UHGV virus genome: UHGV-0115898
Source of the DNA: a virus
DNA: 40,790 bases
Strand: one strand, 5' to 3'
How positions within the stretch are numbered: position 1 is the first letter of the stretch; each line of letters opens with the position of its first letter. The notes under the pieces are model-generated. The model did no database searches and was not told where the DNA came from. It worked only from the letters and a program-made list of their open reading frames with translations. Positions 1-40,740 of the stretch are shown piece after piece. A program made the translations under genes and the position numbers.

Positions 1-52
1 TTATCAATTTGTTGCAACGAACAGGTCACTATCAGTCAAAATAAAATCATTA
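1..52. promoter_or_regulatory. Fragment of lambda-type attachment site P-prime arm with tandem Int arm-type binding motifs (aggtcactat / cagtcaaaat / aaaatcatta); core not in window
   Basis: Sequence immediately 3' of int carries three tandem copies of the arm-type consensus (C/A)AGTCACTAT; recognised as lambda attP P' arm from memory; the overlap-region core is not present. Confidence 0.5.
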
Positions 53-1120
53 TTTGATTTCAATTTTGTCCCACTCCCTGCCTCTGTCATCACGATACTG
101 TGATGCCATGGTGTCCGACTTATGCCCGAGAAGATGTTGAGCAAATTTATCGCTTATCTGCTTCTCATAGAGTCTTGCAGACAAACTGCGCAACTCGTGA
201 AAGGTAGGCGGATCCCCTTCGAAGGAAAGACCTGATGCTTTTCGTGCGCGCATAAAATACCTTGATACTGTGCCGGATGAAAGCGGTTCACGACGAGTAG
301 ATGCAATTATGGTTTCTCCGCCAAGAATCTCTTTGCATTTATCAAGTGTTTCCTTCATTGATATCCCAAGAGCATCAACATGCAATGTTGTTGGGATGGC
401 AATTTTTACGCCTGTTTTGCTTTGCTCGACATAAAGATATCCATCTACGATATCAGACCACTTCATTTCGCATAAATCACCAACTCGCTGCCCGGTAACA
501 ACAGCCAGTTCCATTGCAAGTCTGAGCCAACATGGTGATGATTCTGCTGCTTGATAAATTTTCAGGTATTCATCAGCCGTAAGTCTTGATCTCCTTACCT
601 CTGATTTTGCTGCGCGAGTGGCGGTGACCGGGTTTGTTGTTATATGGCCTTCAGCTATAGCCTCTCGGAATGCATCGCTCAGTGTTGATCTGATTAACTT
701 GGCTGACGCAGCCTTGCCCTCGTCTATGTATCCATTGAGCATTGCCGCAATTTCTTTTGTGGTGATGTCTTCAAGTGGAGCATCAGGCAGCCCCCTCCTT
801 ATTGCTTTAATTTTGCTCATGTAATTTATGAGTGTCTTTTGCTTGATTCCTCTGCTGGTGAGGATTTTTTCGTAGCGATCAAGCCATGAATGTAACGTAA
901 CTGAATTATCACTGTTAATCCTCGCTGTCAGAGGCTTGTGTTTGTGTCCTGAAAATAACTCAATGTTGGCCTGTATAGCTTCAGTGATTGCGATTCGCCT
1001 GTCTCGGCCTAATCCAAACTCTTTACCCGTCCTTGGGTCCCTGTAGCAGTAATATCCATTGTTTCTTATATAAAGGTTAGGGGGTAAATCCCGGCGCTCA
1101 TGACTTCGCCTTCTTCCCAT
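50..1120 (-). CDS. int: Tyrosine site-specific integrase, lambda Int type (356 aa)
   Basis: ORF translation MGRRRSHERRDLPPNLYIRNNGYYCYRDPRTGKEF... with C-terminal catalytic region (HELRSL...LLGH...Y) matches lambda Int along its length; ATG start confirmed at 1118-1120. Confidence 0.97.
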   Translation of the reverse strand: MGRRRSHERRDLPPNLYIRNNGYYCYRDPRTGKEFGLGRDRRIAITEAIQANIELFSGHKHKPLTARINSDNSVTLHSWLDRYEKILTSRGIKQKTLINYMSKIKAIRRGLPDAPLEDITTKEIAAMLNGYIDEGKAASAKLIRSTLSDAFREAIAEGHITTNPVTATRAAKSEVRRSRLTADEYLKIYQAAESSPCWLRLAMELAVVTGQRVGDLCEMKWSDIVDGYLYVEQSKTGVKIAIPTTLHVDALGISMKETLDKCKEILGGETIIASTRREPLSSGTVSRYFMRARKASGLSFEGDPPTFHELRSLSARLYEKQISDKFAQHLLGHKSDTMASQYRDDRGREWDKIEIK

Positions 1121-1316
1121 TTCTGATCCTCTTCAAAAGGCTACCTGTTACTGGTCGATTTAAGTCAACCTTTACCGCTGATTCGTGGAACAGATACTCT
1201 CTTCCATCCTTAACCGGAGGAGGGAATATCCTGCATTCGCGCACCCATCGACGAACTGTTTCAAGGCTTCTTGGGCGTCGCTGGCGTGCGTTCCACTCCT
1301 GAAGTGTCAAGTACAT
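1098..1316 (-). CDS. xis: Excisionase Xis (72 aa), overlapping int start as in lambda
   Basis: Translation MYLTLQEWNARQRRPRSLETVRRWVRECRIFPPPVKDGREYLFHESAVKVDLNRP... matches lambda Xis; 23-nt overlap with int. Confidence 0.95.
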   Translation of the reverse strand: MYLTLQEWNARQRRPRSLETVRRWVRECRIFPPPVKDGREYLFHESAVKVDLNRPVTGSLLKRIRNGKKAKS

Positions 1317-1340: not shown

Positions 1341-1368
1341 AAGAAAAAAACCGCCATCAGGCGGCTTG
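1341..1368 (-). terminator. Putative intrinsic terminator on minus strand between the early-left accessory genes and xis
   Basis: Minus strand reads GCCGCC-TGAT-GGCGG hairpin followed by TTTTTTTT (plus strand aaaaaaaccgccatcaggcggc). Confidence 0.5.
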
Positions 1369-2530: not shown

Positions 2531-2794
2531 TTAACCCGCAGTGCTTTCAACTGATGAGGAGAACAAAATCTTTTCATCAAACCCTGCATTCATATCATGA
2601 ACAGCAACACACCAATCCATCGACGAACGATTATCAAGAGCCTCCATGATTTCATCCATGCGGCGCAGGTCATACAGGTAAATGCTTTTATCGCCAATGG
2701 TGTAAAAACCAATTTTTTTCGGTGACGGGCAGCGATCAAGAACGTTCTGTAATTCGCTCAACCATGCCTGTTCCTTTTTTGTCAAAGTTGCCAT
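2531..2794 (-). CDS. Hypothetical early-left protein (about 87 aa from ATG at 2794; ORF-track start at 2824 is TTG)
   Basis: ORF in operon orientation; ATG at 2792-2794 lies 1 nt after the upstream gene stop. Confidence 0.45.
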   Translation of the reverse strand: MATLTKKEQAWLSELQNVLDRCPSPKKIGFYTIGDKSIYLYDLRRMDEIMEALDNRSSMDWCVAVHDMNAGFDEKILFSSSVESTAG

Positions 2795-2795
2795 A

Positions 2796-3488
2796 TCACT
2801 CTCCTTTGATGCGAATGCCAGCAAGCCAGTTTCTTATGCCGATATATTCAGCGTTCCTGAAACCGCTTTTTACATATATAAATGGCAAGCGAAGATTGTG
2901 ACCATTGGCTGCCAGGTAGTATTTACAACCCTGTTCGGTGAAACAGCAGGTAACGAATTCATCAATATCTTTCACAGCAACGCGCCGCCATTTTTCTGGT
3001 GGCTCTCGAAAGTTTTCGTGAAGTAGTTCGAGACGACGACTTTGGCGTTTATTGGCTTCATTACCATCTTCATCAACCCAGACAATCCGGTCATAGTCAT
3101 AATCAGCATCAACAACGATTTCGCGCTTTTGATACACACAAAACATAGGGTCTGACGTTATTCGATTATCCTGTGTTCGAATATTTTCACCGATGATGCC
3201 AAACGAATCTGGTGCAGCTTTTTTCTCCAGCTCTGCAATGCGTTTGCTTTGAGCTTCCAGTTCATCAAGAAGCGCAAGCACGGTAGCCGGATTAGCCTTG
3301 GCAACAAAATCCCGGACTGACTTACAATCAATCTCCGCAATGGGTTGATACGATGTGTAGCCATGCTGTCTTGTATAACTACCGTGACGAATAACGAAAA
3401 AATCACCATTTATTTTTTTAGCCTGCCACTTATCTTCACCGGCTTTCTCTGCCGCTTCACGCAGTGCCTGATAATCAATCTTGCTCAC
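2796..3488 (-). CDS. Hypothetical phage protein, Ead/Ea22-like (230 aa), GTG start with AGGAGG Shine-Dalgarno
   Basis: Long ORF; start codon is GTG at 3486-3488 preceded by AGGAGGCAACCA on the minus strand; central coiled-coil-like AQSKRIAELEKKA. Confidence 0.55.
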   Translation of the reverse strand: MSKIDYQALREAAEKAGEDKWQAKKINGDFFVIRHGSYTRQHGYTSYQPIAEIDCKSVRDFVAKANPATVLALLDELEAQSKRIAELEKKAAPDSFGIIGENIRTQDNRITSDPMFCVYQKREIVVDADYDYDRIVWVDEDGNEANKRQSRRLELLHENFREPPEKWRRVAVKDIDEFVTCCFTEQGCKYYLAANGHNLRLPFIYVKSGFRNAEYIGIRNWLAGIRIKGE

Positions 3489-3729
3489 TGGTTGCCTCCT
3501 GCTTTTCTGCCTTCAACACCATGCGAGAACCATCATCCAGCTCCCACACTATCTCACCACCTTCAGCCATGACCAGTTGCCACACCAATTGAGCAGCCTC
3601 ATTGGTAACATCACGACCTGGATCATTGCCAACGCGCATACGTCCACCTTCAACATCGCGCATTTTTGCCAGCATGATAGTTTTTGATAGCGGTGAAAAA
3701 CCAAGCTGTAGTCGTGCTGAATTACTCAC
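3475..3729 (-). CDS. Hypothetical small protein (84 aa), GTG start with identical AGGAGGCAACCA leader
   Basis: ORF with GTGA overlap to upstream gene stop; the same 17-nt start module as the gene at 3488. Confidence 0.45.
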   Translation of the reverse strand: MSNSARLQLGFSPLSKTIMLAKMRDVEGGRMRVGNDPGRDVTNEAAQLVWQLVMAEGGEIVWELDDGSRMVLKAEKQEATSEQD

Positions 3730-4226
3730 TGGTTGCCTCCTTTGCGAAGCTGGTCGGCGAACAAACGTACACCAGACGCTTCACTGCGTAGTAACTTAAC
3801 GGCATCATCAAAACCACCTCGTTCTGCGTCGTCTGCTCCGTTGTCGAGGTTATCTGCGTACATCTCTACCCCCTGCGCCCGTACTTCAGCCAGGAAAGCA
3901 TCGGTGGCTGGGGTGTCTGATTGCAGAGACTTTGCGCGATAGTCATTCCACCCTCTTGCATACATGGGATTAACTTGCACTCCATCTTTTACGCAATATG
4001 CCTGCCCTCCACGGTTGATAACCTTGATTTCGCCCATAGCGCCAGACTTCAGCCCCGCATTCTCCGCTGCCAGCGCCGCGCACTTAGCCTCCGCTTCAGC
4101 AAATTTACGCACCAGATATTCAGCGTTTGTTTCGTTAACCTTTAAATCTCGGGGGATGCATTTACCTTTCAGGAATCCATCCATCTCAATTAGTGACATT
4201 TGTTTCATTTCTTCCCACTCCGCCAC
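3726..4226 (-). CDS. Hypothetical early-left protein (166 aa; start ambiguous between GTG at 4226 and ATG at 4208)
   Basis: ORF in operon orientation; acidic C-terminal half; no recognisable domain. Confidence 0.5.
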
Positions 4227-4365
4227 ATTGCATTCAGATATTTGTTGTCATTAACAGAGCCGAAACTATTTCTCTTAAGCAATTCCTCTCTCGATGGCAT
4301 TGGCTTTACGCGTTGGCGAATAATCATTTCTGCCGGAAGAATGCCGGGATTGTATGCAAGTCCTC

Positions 4366-4689
4366 TCATGATTTACTCTCAACGAACTGGTCAATAGCCA
4401 TGCTAAGTGACATACCTAAAGTTTCGATATGCTGCTGAATATCCTGTAGCGTCTGCGCCTGAGATAACAGGATTTCACGGTTGCATAATTCTTTAACCAG
4501 ATGCTCAAACTTGCTGTAATAACCGATACGGCTTAGTGTTTCTTTCCCTGCATTCTCGCCTTCTTTGATAATTCCTCTTTCACTAAGAATCAGATCGTGT
4601 TTGGTTCCGGTAATAACGTATTTTCCGAGGTCGATGTTTAGCTTCATTGTTTTCATGGTAAATTCCTCAGTCATTACTGATAGCGCCAT
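4366..4689 (-). CDS. Hypothetical protein (107 aa)
   Basis: ORF with ATG at 4687-4689, overlapping the upstream gene end by 23 nt. Confidence 0.5.
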
Positions 4690-4963
4690 AGCGTGAGCGG
4701 TAATTACGCAGGCGCGGGTCGATATATTCAGGGAAGTGGGTATATGTGGCTTTGCGGAATGGTCGGATTGATGTTTCGTTTATTCGGTCTTTTTCCTGTT
4801 TTTCTGCGAGTTGTATATCGCGTCGGCACTTCCGTTCTTCTTTTGTTTCTGGTGGCAGAGCAAGAAACGCGTCGAGATTATTCTTGATATTTTCCAGCAC
4901 CTCCGATACGGAATTGCCGGAACAGCGGCGCGGGTCATCCGCACCATACAGAGGCGCTGGCAT
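4667..4963 (-). CDS. Hypothetical basic protein (98 aa)
   Basis: ATG at 4961-4963 preceded by AGGAG at 6-nt spacing on the minus strand. Confidence 0.5.
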   Translation of the reverse strand: MPAPLYGADDPRRCSGNSVSEVLENIKNNLDAFLALPPETKEERKCRRDIQLAEKQEKDRINETSIRPFRKATYTHFPEYIDPRLRNYRSRYGAISND

Positions 4964-4979: not shown

Positions 4980-5528
4980 TTATTTAGCTAACTTTTTCCA
5001 GATCGCTGAAACGTATTTGGCTTGGTGAATGGCATCATCAAGCGCGTTGTGGCGAGTTCCTTTGAATGGCATATCTCGCTTAGGGTCGAATCCTATTACC
5101 TTCCCAAGTTCGACGATTGTTCTTACGTCGCGGTCATTCCACCACTGCCACGGAACTGGCTGCCCTGTCAGCGAATAACTGTTTCGGAGAATAACGCAGT
5201 CAAATGATGCTCCATTCCCCCAAACCTGAACGAATTTGTGGTTAGCGTTCTTTATGATGAATTCAGATAACCATGAAAGAGCCGTTGAAAGCTCCTGAGT
5301 GTTGCTGGTTAGCGATTTTCTGGCTTCTTCACTCTGTTCCAGCCACCATAAAATCGTTGAAGCGTCAGGACGCGCTCGATATCGCATTGATGATTCAAGC
5401 GAGATATTTACCGAGAACTCTTCTCCTGTTTCTCCGGTATTCGGGTCAAAGAATACCGACCCAATAGAAATAACTGGCGCGTATGGCCCGTTGCCCATTG
5501 TTTCAAGGTCAACCATCAAGTGATTCAT
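4980..5528 (-). CDS. DnaQ-like (DEDDh) 3'-5' exonuclease (182 aa)
   Basis: Exo I motif MVDLETMG near the N-terminus and Exo III motif HNALDDA near the C-terminus; size typical of phage stand-alone proofreading-type exonucleases. Confidence 0.8.
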   Translation of the reverse strand: MNHLMVDLETMGNGPYAPVISIGSVFFDPNTGETGEEFSVNISLESSMRYRARPDASTILWWLEQSEEARKSLTSNTQELSTALSWLSEFIIKNANHKFVQVWGNGASFDCVILRNSYSLTGQPVPWQWWNDRDVRTIVELGKVIGFDPKRDMPFKGTRHNALDDAIHQAKYVSAIWKKLAK

Positions 5529-5536
5529 GTAAGTCC

Positions 5537-6052
5537 TTAAATTGCGTGAATAGCGTGACGAGGGAAGGGGAGAGTTACTGGTGCAAAGGGGATATCGTCG
5601 TCAAAATCCATAGGTGGTTCGCTGTGATTTCCCTGCTGCTGAGGTTGCTGTCTTTGTTGCTGACCATTATTTCGCTGAGGTGAAGACTGTTCATTGCCTC
5701 CTTGCTTGCCACCAAGCATTTGCATGGTTCCACCAACGCCCACGATGACTTCGGTAGTGAACCGATCCTGTCCGCTTTGATCCTGCCATTTTCTTGTCCG
5801 CAATTTGCCTTCAAGATAAACCTCAGATCCTTTTCGCAGATATTCGCTGGCAATTTCTGCCAGTTTCCCGCTCATTACCACGCGGTGCCACTCCGTCTGC
5901 TCCTTTTGCTCTCCAGTTTTCTTATCACGCCATTGTTCTGACGTAGCAACGGTAAGGTTTGCAAATGCCGTTCCTGATGGTGAATATCTGATTTCTGGAT
6001 CATGCCCAAGGCGACCAATAATGATCACCTTATTTACGCCTCTGCTTGCCAT
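5537..6052 (-). CDS. ssb: Single-stranded DNA-binding protein (171 aa) with Gly/Gln-rich linker and DFDDDIPF acidic tip followed by a 15-aa extension
   Basis: OB-fold N-terminus [23 protein letters not shown]..., [10 protein letters not shown] linker, [11 protein letters not shown] motif; ORF continues [15 protein letters not shown] before the stop at 5537-5539. Confidence 0.9.
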
Positions 6053-6760
6053 TTATGCCGCCTGTTTTAGCTCGTTAACTCTGATGTTCATTACCTGAAC
6101 GCATTTAGCCTGCGCCTCCTCGTTTCCAGCCATTAATTGCCAGTCATGCTGATAACGCTCGATGAGTTTTTTCTTGTCAGTTTCTGTCGCTGCATAATCG
6201 CTGAAGTCTTTCAGGATTTGTTCGCAGTCAACCGATGGAGATTTCTGGTTGGTATTTTCTGGTGATGGTTTGTTATCTGATGCTGGGATTGCCCATCCCG
6301 GCAGCGATGGAGGGGACCAGTAAAATCCTGTTCCATCCTTCAGTTTTGCCCTGTGCCATCCCTGCTTTTTATCGAGAGATGTTTGTGCGAAACCTTCCTC
6401 AAGGTTATACAGATACCGACCGATTCCCCATTGAACGGCAGCGCGCTTCATTGCGCCGGAACGACCACCTTTGACTGCTTCTACCTGCGTGTTTTCAGCA
6501 GCATCCCATTTGGTTACCCATTCGGAATCAATCTTTATTGATATGCCGCATTCAACGCCGCCGTTGTTGGGAATATCGCGGTATTCATTGCGCCATCCTG
6601 CTTTGCCGCAAACATCGTCCAGGCGTTTCATGATTGCCCGGTTCGTGACATAAGCCAGCACCATAGCCCACACTTTGCCATCGCGTGTTTTACCGCTTTG
6701 CTGTATTCGCCATTCGATATCTTCAGGGCTGAATGGCTCATCGAATTTGTTCAAATCCAT
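6053..6760 (-). CDS. Single-strand annealing recombinase: Rad52-like N-terminal domain fused to a P22 Erf-like C-terminal tail (235 aa)
   Basis: C-terminus ...AATETDKKKLIERYQHDWQLMAGNEEAQAKCVQVMNIRVNELKQAA matches the P22 Erf C-terminus from memory; N-terminal ~150 aa (EWRIQQ...LAYVTNRAIMKRLDDVCGKAGW) looks Rad52/Sak-like, not Erf-like. Confidence 0.75.
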   Translation of the reverse strand: MDLNKFDEPFSPEDIEWRIQQSGKTRDGKVWAMVLAYVTNRAIMKRLDDVCGKAGWRNEYRDIPNNGGVECGISIKIDSEWVTKWDAAENTQVEAVKGGRSGAMKRAAVQWGIGRYLYNLEEGFAQTSLDKKQGWHRAKLKDGTGFYWSPPSLPGWAIPASDNKPSPENTNQKSPSVDCEQILKDFSDYAATETDKKKLIERYQHDWQLMAGNEEAQAKCVQVMNIRVNELKQAA

Positions 6761-6847: not shown

Positions 6848-7018
6848 TCACGATCTCCCTTCTGGCGATACATTAACGCCTGCTGCGTGTACATGCGCCT
6901 CTGTAACTTGCTCTCCTTCACTGTGGTTGCAAGTGACATGAATATCTCCTTCGTTACCGATTAATTCTTTCATCTGACGAATGAATTCTTCGTCTGACCA
7001 GTTATCTGTAAAACTCAT
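6848..7018 (-). CDS. Hypothetical small acidic protein (56 aa from ATG at 7018) in the position of kil
   Basis: ATG at 7016-7018 forms an ATGA overlap with the cIII stop; ORF-track start at 7048 is TTG. Confidence 0.4.
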   Translation of the reverse strand: MSFTDNWSDEEFIRQMKELIGNEGDIHVTCNHSEGEQVTEAHVHAAGVNVSPEGRS

Positions 7019-7185
7019 GGACGGCCTTGTTGTTTCAAAATATCCCAAAGCTTTTCGAGCAAACTTTTCATTCTTGGTTGTTTAAAGTCTGCTCCGGTTA
7101 AAATGTTTTTTCGTGAATGCTGTACCGATAAAATCGGGTTGAAAGGGCGAACCGATGCCGCCCCTGCAATAGCGAACTGTTGCAT
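7015..7185 (-). CDS. cIII: CIII-like protease (FtsH) inhibitor, 56 aa
   Basis: Internal ATG at 7183-7185 with AAGGAG at 7-nt spacing; MQQFAIAG...LLEKLWDILKQQG resembles lambda CIII; lies left of N as in lambda. Confidence 0.7.
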   Translation of the reverse strand: MQQFAIAGAASVRPFNPILSVQHSRKNILTGADFKQPRMKSLLEKLWDILKQQGRP

Positions 7186-34744: not shown

Positions 34745-34812
34745 AGTTGAAGCCCCAACTGCGGGAACAGTCAGGGCTTCTGTTGTCAGTAAATTCGTGG
34801 AGAAAAACCAAC

Positions 34813-37993: not shown

Positions 37994-38027
37994 CCTGCCA
38001 ATAGACTTTATTGGCAGGATTTTTTAT
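37994..38027 (+). terminator. Intrinsic terminator after tailspike, overlapping the 3' end of convergent gtrC
   Basis: CCTGCCAATA-gactt-TATTGGCAGG hairpin followed by ATTTTTTAT. Confidence 0.75.
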
Positions 38028-39462
38028 CAAAATCAACAATCAAAATGCTATCCTTGATATAGGAATTTAGCCATTGCCCCTGAAAGGATAGGTTACCTTC
38101 ACATTTATGTGAAATGTAATTTTTAGCCTTGTTTGCTGGCATGTATGTATTCTTTATCCCATTAAATGACATGTACGCACTTCCCCAATACCAGTTCCAG
38201 AAGTAATCTGTGACTGAATAGTTTATCAAAGGAAAGTTTAATGCTGCATTTTTTACAGCTTCGGATCTTGGTGCTGTGCCGGTAAACACAATGCTAACAT
38301 TATCACTACCAGCGTCGCGAATGGATTGCATAATTTCAGAAAGAACTACTTTATTTATCCTTTCCTGAGCCTTCAAAGCATTTCCGTATACATACATTAA
38401 AATCATAGAATACAATACGGGTATTAATGTAATTGATGTTACGTATCTATGTTCTTTAAAGCAATAATATAGCAATGTACTCATGAGGACATAAAAAACT
38501 CCAACCGACATGTATAAGTGAACTCCTCCCAATGGGTTGGCGAGAACCAGCAATGCCCCCATAGTCATTGGCATAGCGATTGCTGTTGCGAGTATCGCTC
38601 CAGTTATAACGTTAAATACTTTCCAGTTTAGGCCTTTACATTTAACGTATTTGTAACTCAGAAACGCCGTCATAATAATGCAAGCTAAAGCTGACAGGAG
38701 TAATAATTCACCACCGACAACCCTGTAAAAATTTGTAGAAGCAAAATCGTAATACTTTAAGCTGTTATTCTTTAGTGCCCCTAATATATCATTTGATATT
38801 CTTGGGTGATTAGATGAATAATGCCCGCTAAAAGTTATGGGTAATATGAATTTCACGTATATCATACCACCTACTAAAACCTGCATTATACGTAATGCAA
38901 CCCTTTTAAGTATTAACTGCGGGTCAGTAAATCTGGCCATGTTAACTATTACTTCACATATTAATAAAATCGCAACGACATTAATGACTGCCTGATAAGT
39001 GCCAAGCACTATCACTACAAATGCGGTGCCTATTATTAATTCATGAACCAGTCTTTTGCACTTAATTGCAAAGAGAGCAAATGCAGATGCAATGGAGAAA
39101 CTGAAAGTTAAAACATCAAACCGATAAGAGAACATTGATATAATAGCTGGATTCGCCATGAATGCCAGAGGTATAATAAAGCTCCATTTTCCCCCATCAA
39201 GAAACCTCTTTCTGTAACATGCAAAAGATATTGCAAGCAGCACAGAAGCAAGAATGATTGGTAGAGGTGCAAGATCGACGATTCTGGAGCTAAGATTGAG
39301 AACTGACATTACTATATCAGCTACAGGCCTCCCGTCCACACCCCATTTAGTATAACCAACAGTCGTTCGCCCAATATCATCAACATAAAATTGGTTTGCT
39401 AGGATAATTGGCAATATAAATATAAAAATAACATACGAGTAACGTTTTGAGTTGTTAATCAT
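38008..39462 (-). CDS. gtrC: GtrC-type serotype-specific O-antigen glucosyltransferase, polytopic membrane protein (484 aa)
   Basis: Multiple hydrophobic TM segments, AT-rich, located 3' of gtrA/gtrB with overlapping start. Confidence 0.8.
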
Positions 39463-40381
39463 TTTTATTCTTACCCTTTAAAATATATCTTGGACGCTGT
39501 TTAACCTCGATATAAATCCTTCCGATGTATTCACCAAGTACCCCTATACCGATCAACTGAATCCCGCCCAAGAAAAGTATCGATACCAGCAAAGATGGAT
39601 AACCACGAACAGCATTCCCAAATACAAGCGTGTCGATAATCATCCACGTTCCGTACAGGAATGCCACTCCGGCAACAAACAGGCCGATATAGGTCCACAT
39701 ACGCAGGGGTAATGTTGAGAAACTTGTGATTCCTTCAAGTGCTAAATTCCACAACTTCCACCCATTGAATTTTGAATCACCTGCAACCCGTTCTGCGCGT
39801 GCGTATTCCACGACATCTGTCTTTCCGCCAACCCAACTAAGAATGCCTTTCATGAAAAGATTGCGTTCTGGCAGGAGCTTAATATTCTCCACTACCTCGC
39901 GAGACATTAGCCTGAAATCTCCAACATTTTCCTCGATCTGCGGGTTGCTGATTTTGTTATGCAGCTTATAGAACCACTCGGCGGTTTTCCTCTTCAGTCT
40001 GCCATCAGTTGAGCGGTCAGATCGTTTAGCAAGCACCATGTCAGCACCTGCTAGCCATTTCTCAATCAGGTGAGGAATAACTTCTATTGGATCCTGTAAG
40101 TCAACGTCAATCGGGATAATCGCCTCACCAGTTGCGTGATCAAGACCAGCGAACAGCGCAGGTTCTTTACCAAAGTTTCTGGTGAATGACAAAGGAACAA
40201 CAAGCGGATCGGAAACAGCCAGCGCGTTTATAATTGATTCAGTAGCGTCTATGCTACCGTCATTAATAAAGACTATCTCGATTTCATGTTGCTGAAGCCC
40301 TTCAAATTCCCGAGCCGTTTTATAAAAAATCGGTATTGTGTCTTCTTCGTTGAAGACGGGAACGACCAGAGAAATTTTCAT
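39455..40381 (-). CDS. gtrB: GtrB bactoprenol glucosyltransferase (GT2 family), 308 aa
   Basis: GT2 motifs ([22 protein letters not shown]) with two C-terminal TM helices. Confidence 0.92.
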
Positions 40382-40740
40382 CTCGCATCCCTAAATACAA
40401 TTAACTTTGAATAGACGAAACCGCACACCAGGCTGATGGCGGAGAAAGTGATAAGGGTGACCATTGGGGGAAGTGCACATCTATCAGCAGCCCACCCGAC
40501 GACAACACTCAGGGTTCCCATGAATCCCACGTATAACATGTAGCGCATCGTTGTAGTCGATGCTTTGAATGTGAATCTTGCATTCGCGAAGAAGCTAAAG
40601 CTCACAGCTACTATGAAACCTGCGAAGTTTGCCAGAGCCTGATTGGTATGCGCTGCATAGATACATACACCAAAAACCACCCAGTGTATAAGTGTGTTTA
40701 GCACACCAATCGAGGTGTACTTTGCAAATAGCTTTAACAT
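40378..40740 (-). CDS. gtrA: GtrA flippase-like small membrane protein (120 aa)
   Basis: Four predicted TM segments, 120 aa, immediately upstream of and overlapping gtrB. Confidence 0.88.

Follow-up and report, generated by a model that had tools for sequence, protein, structure and literature searches.

What do the small genes contribute that are packed between the recombination genes and the integration genes of a lambdoid phage? We address this question for positions 2531-4963 of the UHGV virus genome UHGV-0115898, a stretch of 40,790 nucleotides which is called the window in the following. The window represents a P22-like temperate phage with a P22 portal, a P22 tailspike head-binding domain, gtrABC, and sar RNA; lambda-type N (PF11438), CI, int, and xis are also present. 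An earlier note, which was based on the letters alone, had described the block as six packed genes without nameable relatives. With moderate confidence, we favor the reading that it is the distal, dispensable, and counter-defence-linked part of a P22-like, N-antiterminated pL operon, that it is the equivalent of the 'ea' or exo-xis segments of related phages, and that it is composed of exchangeable cassettes.

Gene content and layout of the block

Open reading frames (ORFs) on the minus strand fill 2531-4963 without gaps and constitute seven genes, designated A to G from left to right. Beginning at the right, these are: G (4667..4963, 98 aa), which is abc2, encodes anti-RecBCD protein 2, and is preceded by an AGGAGA ribosome-binding site (RBS); F (4366..4656, 96 aa, GAGGAA RBS), which encodes a DUF5405 protein; E (4205..4369, 54 aa), a DUF2737 gene homologous to P22 orf56, with ATGA overlaps at both ends, one of them with the stop of F; D (3726..4208, 160 aa), which shares an ATGA with the stop of E and codes for a modular protein of the EaE/Oad2 family; C (3475..3729, 84 aa, DUF7446), whose GTG start overlaps the stop of D in a GTGA; B (2796..3488, 230 aa), whose GTG start lies 14 nt inside C and whose product combines an Ead/Ea22 N-terminal domain with a phrog_3205 C-terminal domain; and A (2531..2794, 87 aa), which encodes a phrog_1714 protein homologous to ST64T orf-87. 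For D, the mechanical ORF comprises 166 aa, and the 160 aa are counted from the ATG overlapping the stop of E; for F, the mechanical ORF has 107 aa, and the start of many homologues lies three codons further in. The starts of all seven genes are consistent with the RBS positions in the sequence and with the lengths of database homologues.

Neighboring genes overlap by 4-14 nt (ATGA or GTGA, or 14 nt), and RBSs are located inside the upstream genes. Neither a sigma-70-like promoter nor a terminator-like hairpin was found on the minus strand within 2531-4963; terminator-like hairpins on this strand are confined to two places, about 7.2-7.4 kb and about 1.35-1.6 kb. Because the genes are contiguous on one strand, overlap by 4-14 nt, and are not interrupted by a promoter or terminator, we assign the block to the distal part of the pL operon. 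The three hairpins nearest to it (1544-1595 and 1348-1367, minus strand, i.e. the pL strand) lie between the Lar-like gene and xis; possibly, they are the ends of an early-left accessory transcript or sib/tI-like elements.

Are all these ORFs genes? They are short, two of them start with GTG, and Pfam gave no match for A and D, which is why one might regard some or all of them as spurious. This explanation is effectively refuted, and we assign it a negligible probability: PHROG matches exist for all seven proteins (1e-32 to 1e-56), five score above the Pfam gathering threshold, homologues are distributed across Enterobacterales genera and also occur in virulent phages, and exact or near-exact copies are contained in thousands of assemblies. 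In addition, pN/pS was below 1 in every computable pair; the value for B (0.64) is based on only 10 differences, and A and D gave no value. An independent gene call for a public contig with an identical block lists proteins of 98, 96, 160, 84, 230, and 87 aa, whose boundaries agree with ours for six of the genes; the seventh, the 54-aa E, is not listed.

The description given in the earlier note can thus be refined. The ORFs are real and contiguous, their coordinates hold, and they do lie on the pL strand between a DUF550-like gene (dATP/dGTP pyrophosphohydrolase; 1924-2520; PF04447, 3e-42) and an exonuclease gene (PF16473, 2.4e-72). The count of six overlooked gene E, so that of the size range of 87 to 230 aa both values recur as gene lengths and the smallest gene has 54 aa. 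That none of the ORFs matches a nameable family turned out to be wrong: the profile searches proposed there place all seven proteins in catalogued families, namely Abc2 for G and DUF5405, DUF2737, DUF7446, and PHROGs 614, 1714, and 3205 for the others; among these, Abc2 is well characterized. With G, the right border of the supposedly uncharacterized block belongs to the recombination module. The notion of a variable accessory zone with anti-defence genes proved sound, as the exo-xis or 'ea' zone does hold counter-defence genes.

Database scans gave the following negative results: no NCBIfam match for A-G, no PADLOC family at E<=0.01 for A-G, no Rfam family inside the block, and only chance-level matches in single-sequence PDB searches with A, B, C, D, E, and F. 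The PADLOC result bears on the idea that the genes are prophage-expressed 'morons', which protect the lysogen by superinfection exclusion or defence and do not act as anti-defence factors. Defence cargo is common at prophage ends, gtrABC is located at the other end of the window, and the neighboring Lar and DUF550 genes are accessory genes, all of which would suit such a role. However, no defence family was matched, promoter-like sites are absent from the coding strand of the block, translational coupling ties the genes to the pL operon, their orientation is that of the early lytic genes, and homologues of A and C are found in virulent phages, which form no lysogens. We therefore regard the moron explanation as very improbable.

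Genes G and D and the guarding of RecBCD

The clearest assignment in the block is that of G. Its residues 1-98 align with positions 1-97 of the 97 positions of PF11043 (6e-44); further matches are phrog_656 (5.5e-50) and the PDB chain 8b1t_A (5.3e-40 over residues 1-98). In the 8b1t alignment, the N-terminal RecC-binding helices are conserved, with residues 1-23 being identical, and the IRPF motif with P68 is kept; the overall identity is about 71% to P22 Abc2 and 75% to HK446 gp30. In P22 Abc2, P68 is the substrate site of PpiB, and the protein binds to RecC's domains for Chi recognition, such that RecBCD is redirected and not blocked (PMC9836394). A survey from 2025 lists Abc2 as the anti-RecBCD component of lambdoid recombination (Rec) modules (PMC12315714), and the exonuclease, SSB, and Rad52/22 annealing protein directly upstream of G fit class C modules of that survey. 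These matches show G, as judged by homology, to be Abc2 and a part of the adjacent exonuclease-SSB-Rad52 module. By analogy to the solved P22 protein, G would be expected to bind RecC's domains for Chi recognition and to redirect RecBCD. With G counted among the recombination genes, 2531-4656 remains as the actual accessory block.

The module itself (4980-6760, minus strand) comprises genes for a DnaQ-like 3'-5' exonuclease (Rv2179c-like; 4980-5528), an SSB (5537-6052; PF00436, 3.7e-38), and a Rad52/22-type annealing protein (6053-6760; PF04098, 5e-26). Together with G, it is of a four-function type, and in effect it is the HK75 arrangement of abc2, SSB, and annealing protein plus an exonuclease between abc2 and ssb. 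The Chi octamer GCTGGTGG does not occur on either strand of the 40.8 kb window (1-40790). This absence agrees with reports that Chi is scarce in lambdoid phages encoding an anti-RecBCD protein and adds nothing further.

The proximity of this module makes it conceivable that F, E, and D are auxiliary factors of DNA replication or recombination, which work with Abc2 and the Rec module. Their synteny with abc2 and the module is tight, P22 Abc1 and Arf are a precedent for poorly understood recombination helpers, and phrog_154 bears the label 'replication initiation protein' in PHROG and GenBank. We nevertheless consider this explanation improbable and turn to what gene D adds to the counter-defence reading.

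D matches phrog_614 (8.6e-56) and, according to BLASTP, HK446 gp27 (1e-37, 42% identity), with about 95% identity in residues 1-38. HK446 gp27 was named Oad2 in a preprint from July 2026, according to which it binds and inhibits OLD directly (bioRxiv 10.64898/2026.07.10.737580). The same preprint describes P2 OLD as an abortive-infection tRNase that is triggered when RecBCD is compromised; lambda Gam, T7 gp5.9, and Gp33 of HK75/HK446 are triggers, and Gp33 is reported to be sufficient. It further describes P22 EaE as a relative of Oad2 and notes that Oad2 sometimes occurs as a fusion with HNH or EaD/Ea22 proteins, and that HK75 is still sensitive to OLD, despite possessing a homologue 54% identical to Oad2. 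D and Oad2 have in common the motifs AKCxxLAAENAG and QLRKGGNQ as well as a further motif of 14 residues. P22 EaE is found at 4e-8, with about 38% identity over 82 residues. Moreover, the slot of D relative to abc2/DUF5405/DUF2737 is that of HK446 gp27. Sequence similarity and gene order together show D to be a member of the EaE/Oad2 family, located in the same slot as HK446 gp27/Oad2.

Does D also inhibit OLD? Residues 39-60 (approximately) of Oad2, a coiled-coil segment, are missing from D, and the middle and C-terminal modules of the two proteins differ; D is devoid of those Oad2-specific middle and C-terminal segments that set the active HK446 gp27 apart from the HK75 homologue. To HK75_28, D is 61% identical overall, and its residues 99-160 are about 95% identical. 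HK75_28 was confirmed as the 54% Oad2 homologue, with an identity of 97% to Oad2 over the first 60 residues. As HK75_28 shares the N-terminal module of Oad2 and HK75 is nonetheless OLD-sensitive, the N-terminal module is evidently not sufficient for OLD inhibition; and as D carries a C-terminal module of the HK75 type, it probably does not neutralize P2 OLD itself. For this reason, D was rejected as a candidate OLD inhibitor. It appears more likely that D is aimed at another OLD allele or at another system. An exact 160-aa copy of D is already contained in public data, and among the 120 matches listed by a homologue search with D, all relatives are at least 86% identical.

The reported trigger is also at hand in the window. 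A homologue of Gp33 (56 aa) is encoded at 6851..7018 on the minus strand, upstream of the gene for the Rad52-type annealing protein; tblastn gave 94.6% identity over 56 aa to HK446 gp33. In the mechanical ORF list, it is represented by a 66-aa TTG ORF at 6848-7048. Hijacking or inhibition of RecBCD would set off guard systems such as P2 OLD, for which the Gp33 homologue may be a trigger. If interference with RecBCD triggers guards, it would follow that phages position inhibitors of these guards beside the Rec module. In this reading, the block consists of seven translationally coupled small genes, each behaving as an exchangeable cassette, in a phage integrated via lambda-type int/xis. Most likely, D would be a stoichiometric binder and inhibitor of a defence protein encoded by the host or a prophage. 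A, B, C, E, and F are conserved early accessory proteins and plausibly serve as host-takeover or counter-defence factors.

In order to describe the neighborhood of the family, we used the 80 best IMG/VR matches with an EaE/Oad2-family gene, 67 of which extend at least 4 kb upstream of that gene; since these loci are redundant and lack a matched background for comparison, the counts are descriptive only. A DUF2737 gene is located directly upstream in 54 of the 67 loci. Abc2 is found upstream in 43/67, Gp33 in 48/67, and at least one of the two in 54/67 loci. DUF5405 occurs upstream in 14 of the 67 loci and lambda Gam in none (0/67).

Gene B, the remaining genes, and the exchange of cassettes

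B consists of two modules. Module 1 (residues 1-90 approximately; DNA 3219-3488, minus strand) is the Ead/Ea22 N-terminal domain (PF13935, 4.8e-19, residues 2-90) plus a helix; module 2 (residues 92-230; DNA 2799-3215, minus strand) is the phrog_3205 C-terminal domain, the PHROG match being 2.8e-50 for residues 78-229. The suggestion in the earlier note that the 230-aa protein is Ead/Ea22-like therefore applies to the N-terminal domain and not to the remainder: in a BLASTP comparison with lambda Ea22, only the first 21 residues (approximately) and the last 8 residues align. The C-terminal domain of lambda-type Ea22, whose structure was solved by nuclear magnetic resonance, is not present in B according to BLASTP and PDB searches, and the lambda Ea22 chain was not found in sequence and profile searches of the PDB with B. 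The lambda protein forms a tetramer via a central coiled coil. For B, the AlphaFold2 model is poor (pLDDT 62.8); one long helix is predicted at residues 67-89, where pLDDT is 68-84. A transfer of the pro-lysogenic function of lambda Ea22 to B was rejected, because only the termini match.

The C-terminal domain of B is not matched by any Pfam model, and a profile of 42 sequences found nothing below E 0.1 in the PDB. It is a frequent domain: in an exhaustive phmmer search, it was detected in at least 1451 clusters (50% identity), and for 801 of these E was <=1e-10. Elsewhere, it is stand-alone (about 141-147 aa) or located anywhere in proteins of up to 640 aa, and its fusion partners are Ead/Ea22, Oad2-N, Lar, and DUF550 (dATP/dGTP pyrophosphohydrolase) modules. 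Near-invariant motifs are Q-x-N-R-x-T..P.F, FVTxCFTExG, HN, and RNxE; in B, the invariant residues are Q106, N108, R109, T111, E185, H197, N198, R211, N212, and E214. B joins an Ead/Ea22 N-terminal domain plus helix to a widespread and strongly conserved orphan domain.

The other four proteins are assigned as follows. E matches PF10930 (4.2e-30, 103.8 bits, gathering score 25) and phrog_1117 (2e-38); it is 100% identical to HK446 gp28 and 74% identical to P22 orf56. F scores 25.3 bits against PF17399 (DUF5405; cut-off 21.6) and is 99% identical to HK446 gp29; its top BFVD matches are DUF5405 proteins with TM values of 0.75-0.82. C matches PF24233 (DUF7446; 6.4e-19, 68 bits, gathering score 24.1) as well as phrog_1578 (8.6e-34) and has homologues in 21 phage records, which include Klebsiella, Yersinia, Proteus, and Enterobacter phages. 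A matches phrog_1714 (3.3e-49); its homologues in 79 phage records include 59-kb Salmonella phages as well as Klebsiella, Serratia, and Yersinia phages. Both the A and the C family extend to virulent phages. In the literature, we found no functional work on DUF5405, DUF2737, and DUF7446.

How are these genes combined? Breakpoints were mapped by comparison with six related loci; they are located at 2535, 2770-2783, 3244-3255, 3487-3500, 3722-3746, 3872-3917, 4076-4095, 4221-4227, 4370, and 4651-4653 and fall at gene borders and at short conserved motifs within genes. Two copies of an exact 17-bp direct repeat, AGGAGGCAACCAGTGAG, flank C in the window; zero are expected in shuffles. Copy 1 (3725..3741, minus strand) provides C with its RBS and GTG start; at the same time, it overlaps the TGA stop of D and codes for the KGGNQ at the C-terminus of D. 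Copy 2 (3484..3500, minus strand) contains the RBS and GTG start of B and lies inside the 3' end of C. The same 17-mer occurs at the EaE/Ea22 junction in phage vB_EcoP-720R6 and at the junction of a D-like gene with a DUF7446 gene in E. coli PM4-5. It is likely that this repeat is a recombination linker for the gain and loss of cassettes.

Two further cases illustrate the exchange. One E. coli prophage contains A-B-C and E-F at 94-98% identity, with D being precisely absent, and the 'Ea22-like' protein of HK022 is a fusion of the D N-terminus with the C-terminal domain of B. Since the conserved gene ends encode the signals for translational coupling, each gene, and even each domain, assorts independently. 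Diversity would then arise by recombination at conserved gene junctions (RBSs, start-stop overlaps) and at short motifs within genes. The exact gene combination of the block was not found in the collections of phages and complete E. coli genomes at >=80% coverage, as would be expected from mosaicism. Public data already contain the same block as well as proteins that are identical or nearly so. In summary, the block is a typical lambdoid accessory/counter-defence hotspot with a new combination of known cassettes.

The strongest competitor of this interpretation is that the main role of the block lies in adjusting prophage induction and the choice between lysis and lysogeny, as reported for the exo-xis region of lambda and Stx phages, and not in counter-defence. 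The position between the recombination genes and xis/int is equivalent, B possesses an Ead/Ea22 N-terminal domain, and effects of exo-xis on lysogeny have been published: ea22 is pro-lysogenic, and orf60a, orf61, orf63, and ea8.5 are pro-lytic (PMC7093339, PMC3824215, PMC10834534). However, apart from the Ea22 N-terminal domain, Pfam and PHROG revealed no lambda exo-xis homologue in the block, B resembles lambda Ea22 at its outermost ends only, the structure of the lambda C-terminal domain was not found as a relative, and for two of the seven genes, the family has a counter-defence role that concerns RecBCD or OLD. We thus judge this alternative unlikely, albeit deserving more weight than the others discussed here.

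Several points weigh against the counter-defence reading as well. Five of the seven genes are without a demonstrated function, and none has a PADLOC or NCBIfam match. For the lambda exo-xis genes, the documented effects concern the choice between lysis and lysogeny and not defence (PMC7093339, PMC10834534). D is only 39-42% identical to Oad2 and shares with it only the 38 N-terminal residues and short motifs, and the data on Oad2 come from one unreviewed preprint. As HK75 is OLD-sensitive though the first 60 residues of its homologue are nearly those of Oad2, family membership does not predict OLD inhibition, and the anti-defence role of D is inferred. Finally, common descent of lambdoid early regions is mirrored in the co-occurrence counts as much as functional linkage is.

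If the counter-defence reading is correct, the operon, which combines the RecBCD hijacker Abc2, the reported OLD trigger Gp33, and an Oad2-family gene, is an example of a "recombination-linked counter-defence hotspot". A bolder proposal, which we put forward tentatively and with clearly less confidence, is that two of the cassettes encode undescribed counter-defence activities, D being a retargeted binder of the Oad2 family and the phrog_3205 domain of B a new anti-defence domain. The swapped middle and C-terminal modules of D could retarget the protein to a different member of the OLD family (ABC-ATPase/TOPRIM) or to another guard protein; if this were true, the Oad2 family would be a modular, re-addressable inhibitor scaffold. 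The phrog_3205 domain could be an enzymatic or a ligand-sequestering anti-defence domain. It is these two elements that retain interest, with D regarded as a natural variant of specificity within the Oad2 family and phrog_3205 as an orphan domain. The natural module swaps seen in HK446, HK75, and the allele of the window could serve to map the part of Oad2-family proteins that sets specificity, and the phrog_3205 domain, being widespread and unclassified, would lend itself to curation as a family and to functional screens.

Genome context and comparison with HK446, P22, and lambda

Upstream of the block, the pL operon contains the Gp33-like 56-aa gene and those for the Rad52/22 annealing protein, SSB, and the DnaQ-like 3'-5' exonuclease; downstream, the DUF550/dATP-dGTP pyrophosphohydrolase gene, a Lar-like gene, xis, and int follow. 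The window has lambda-type int/xis at its left end (50-1316, minus strand) and the gtrCBA O-antigen modification operon at its right end (38008-40740, minus strand) and looks like a complete prophage. A sar antisense RNA (34745-34812, minus strand; Rfam, 91 bits, gathering score 43) adjoins the tailspike gene; this match indicates a P22-type immI region (ant/arc/mnt). In a public E. coli-type contig with the same block, the int end abuts a gene of the pectinesterase family, a neighbor which we take to be the one expected for the surroundings of lambda attB in E. coli.

The closest counterpart of the block is found in HK446 (gp30-gp27) and HK75 (gp30-gp28). In HK446, the order abc2(gp30)-gp29-gp28-gp27 corresponds to G-F-E-D, in the same orientation downstream of the Rec module, and a Gp33 homologue is located upstream in the window, too. 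Apart from D, the differences concern both flanks: in HK446, xis/int come directly after gp27, whereas in the window C, B, A, DUF550, and Lar are interposed; and HK446 possesses gp31 and Erf in place of the DnaQ-like exonuclease, SSB, and Rad52-type annealing protein encoded here.

The 'ea' region of P22 has the order abc2 - orf56 - eaE - orf45 - eaF - eaD - eaI - eaA - eaG - eaC. As in the window, abc2 is followed by a DUF2737 gene (orf56), a gene of the EaE family, and variable 'ea' genes up to xis/int; additionally, the virion genes, sar RNA, and gtrABC of the window are P22-like. In contrast, abc1 and Erf lie upstream in P22, and F, C, the C-terminal domain of B, and A have no P22 counterparts. 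At the level of Abc2 itself (PDB 8B1T/8B1U), likeness comprises the full-length match, the identity of 71%, the P68 of IRPF, and the adjacent annealing-protein module. The recombinase partners differ: they are a Rad52/22-type protein, SSB, and a DnaQ-like exonuclease here, and Erf, Arf, and Abc1 in P22.

Compared with the lambda exo-xis region (orf60a, orf63, orf61, ea22, ea8.5), the block is the equivalent non-essential pL segment between the recombination genes and xis/int, and it exhibits an Ea22-type N-terminus and conserved gene ends. The gene content in common is limited to the N-terminal segment of Ea22, whose solved C-terminal domain is unrelated to that of B, and where lambda has Gam, the window has Abc2.

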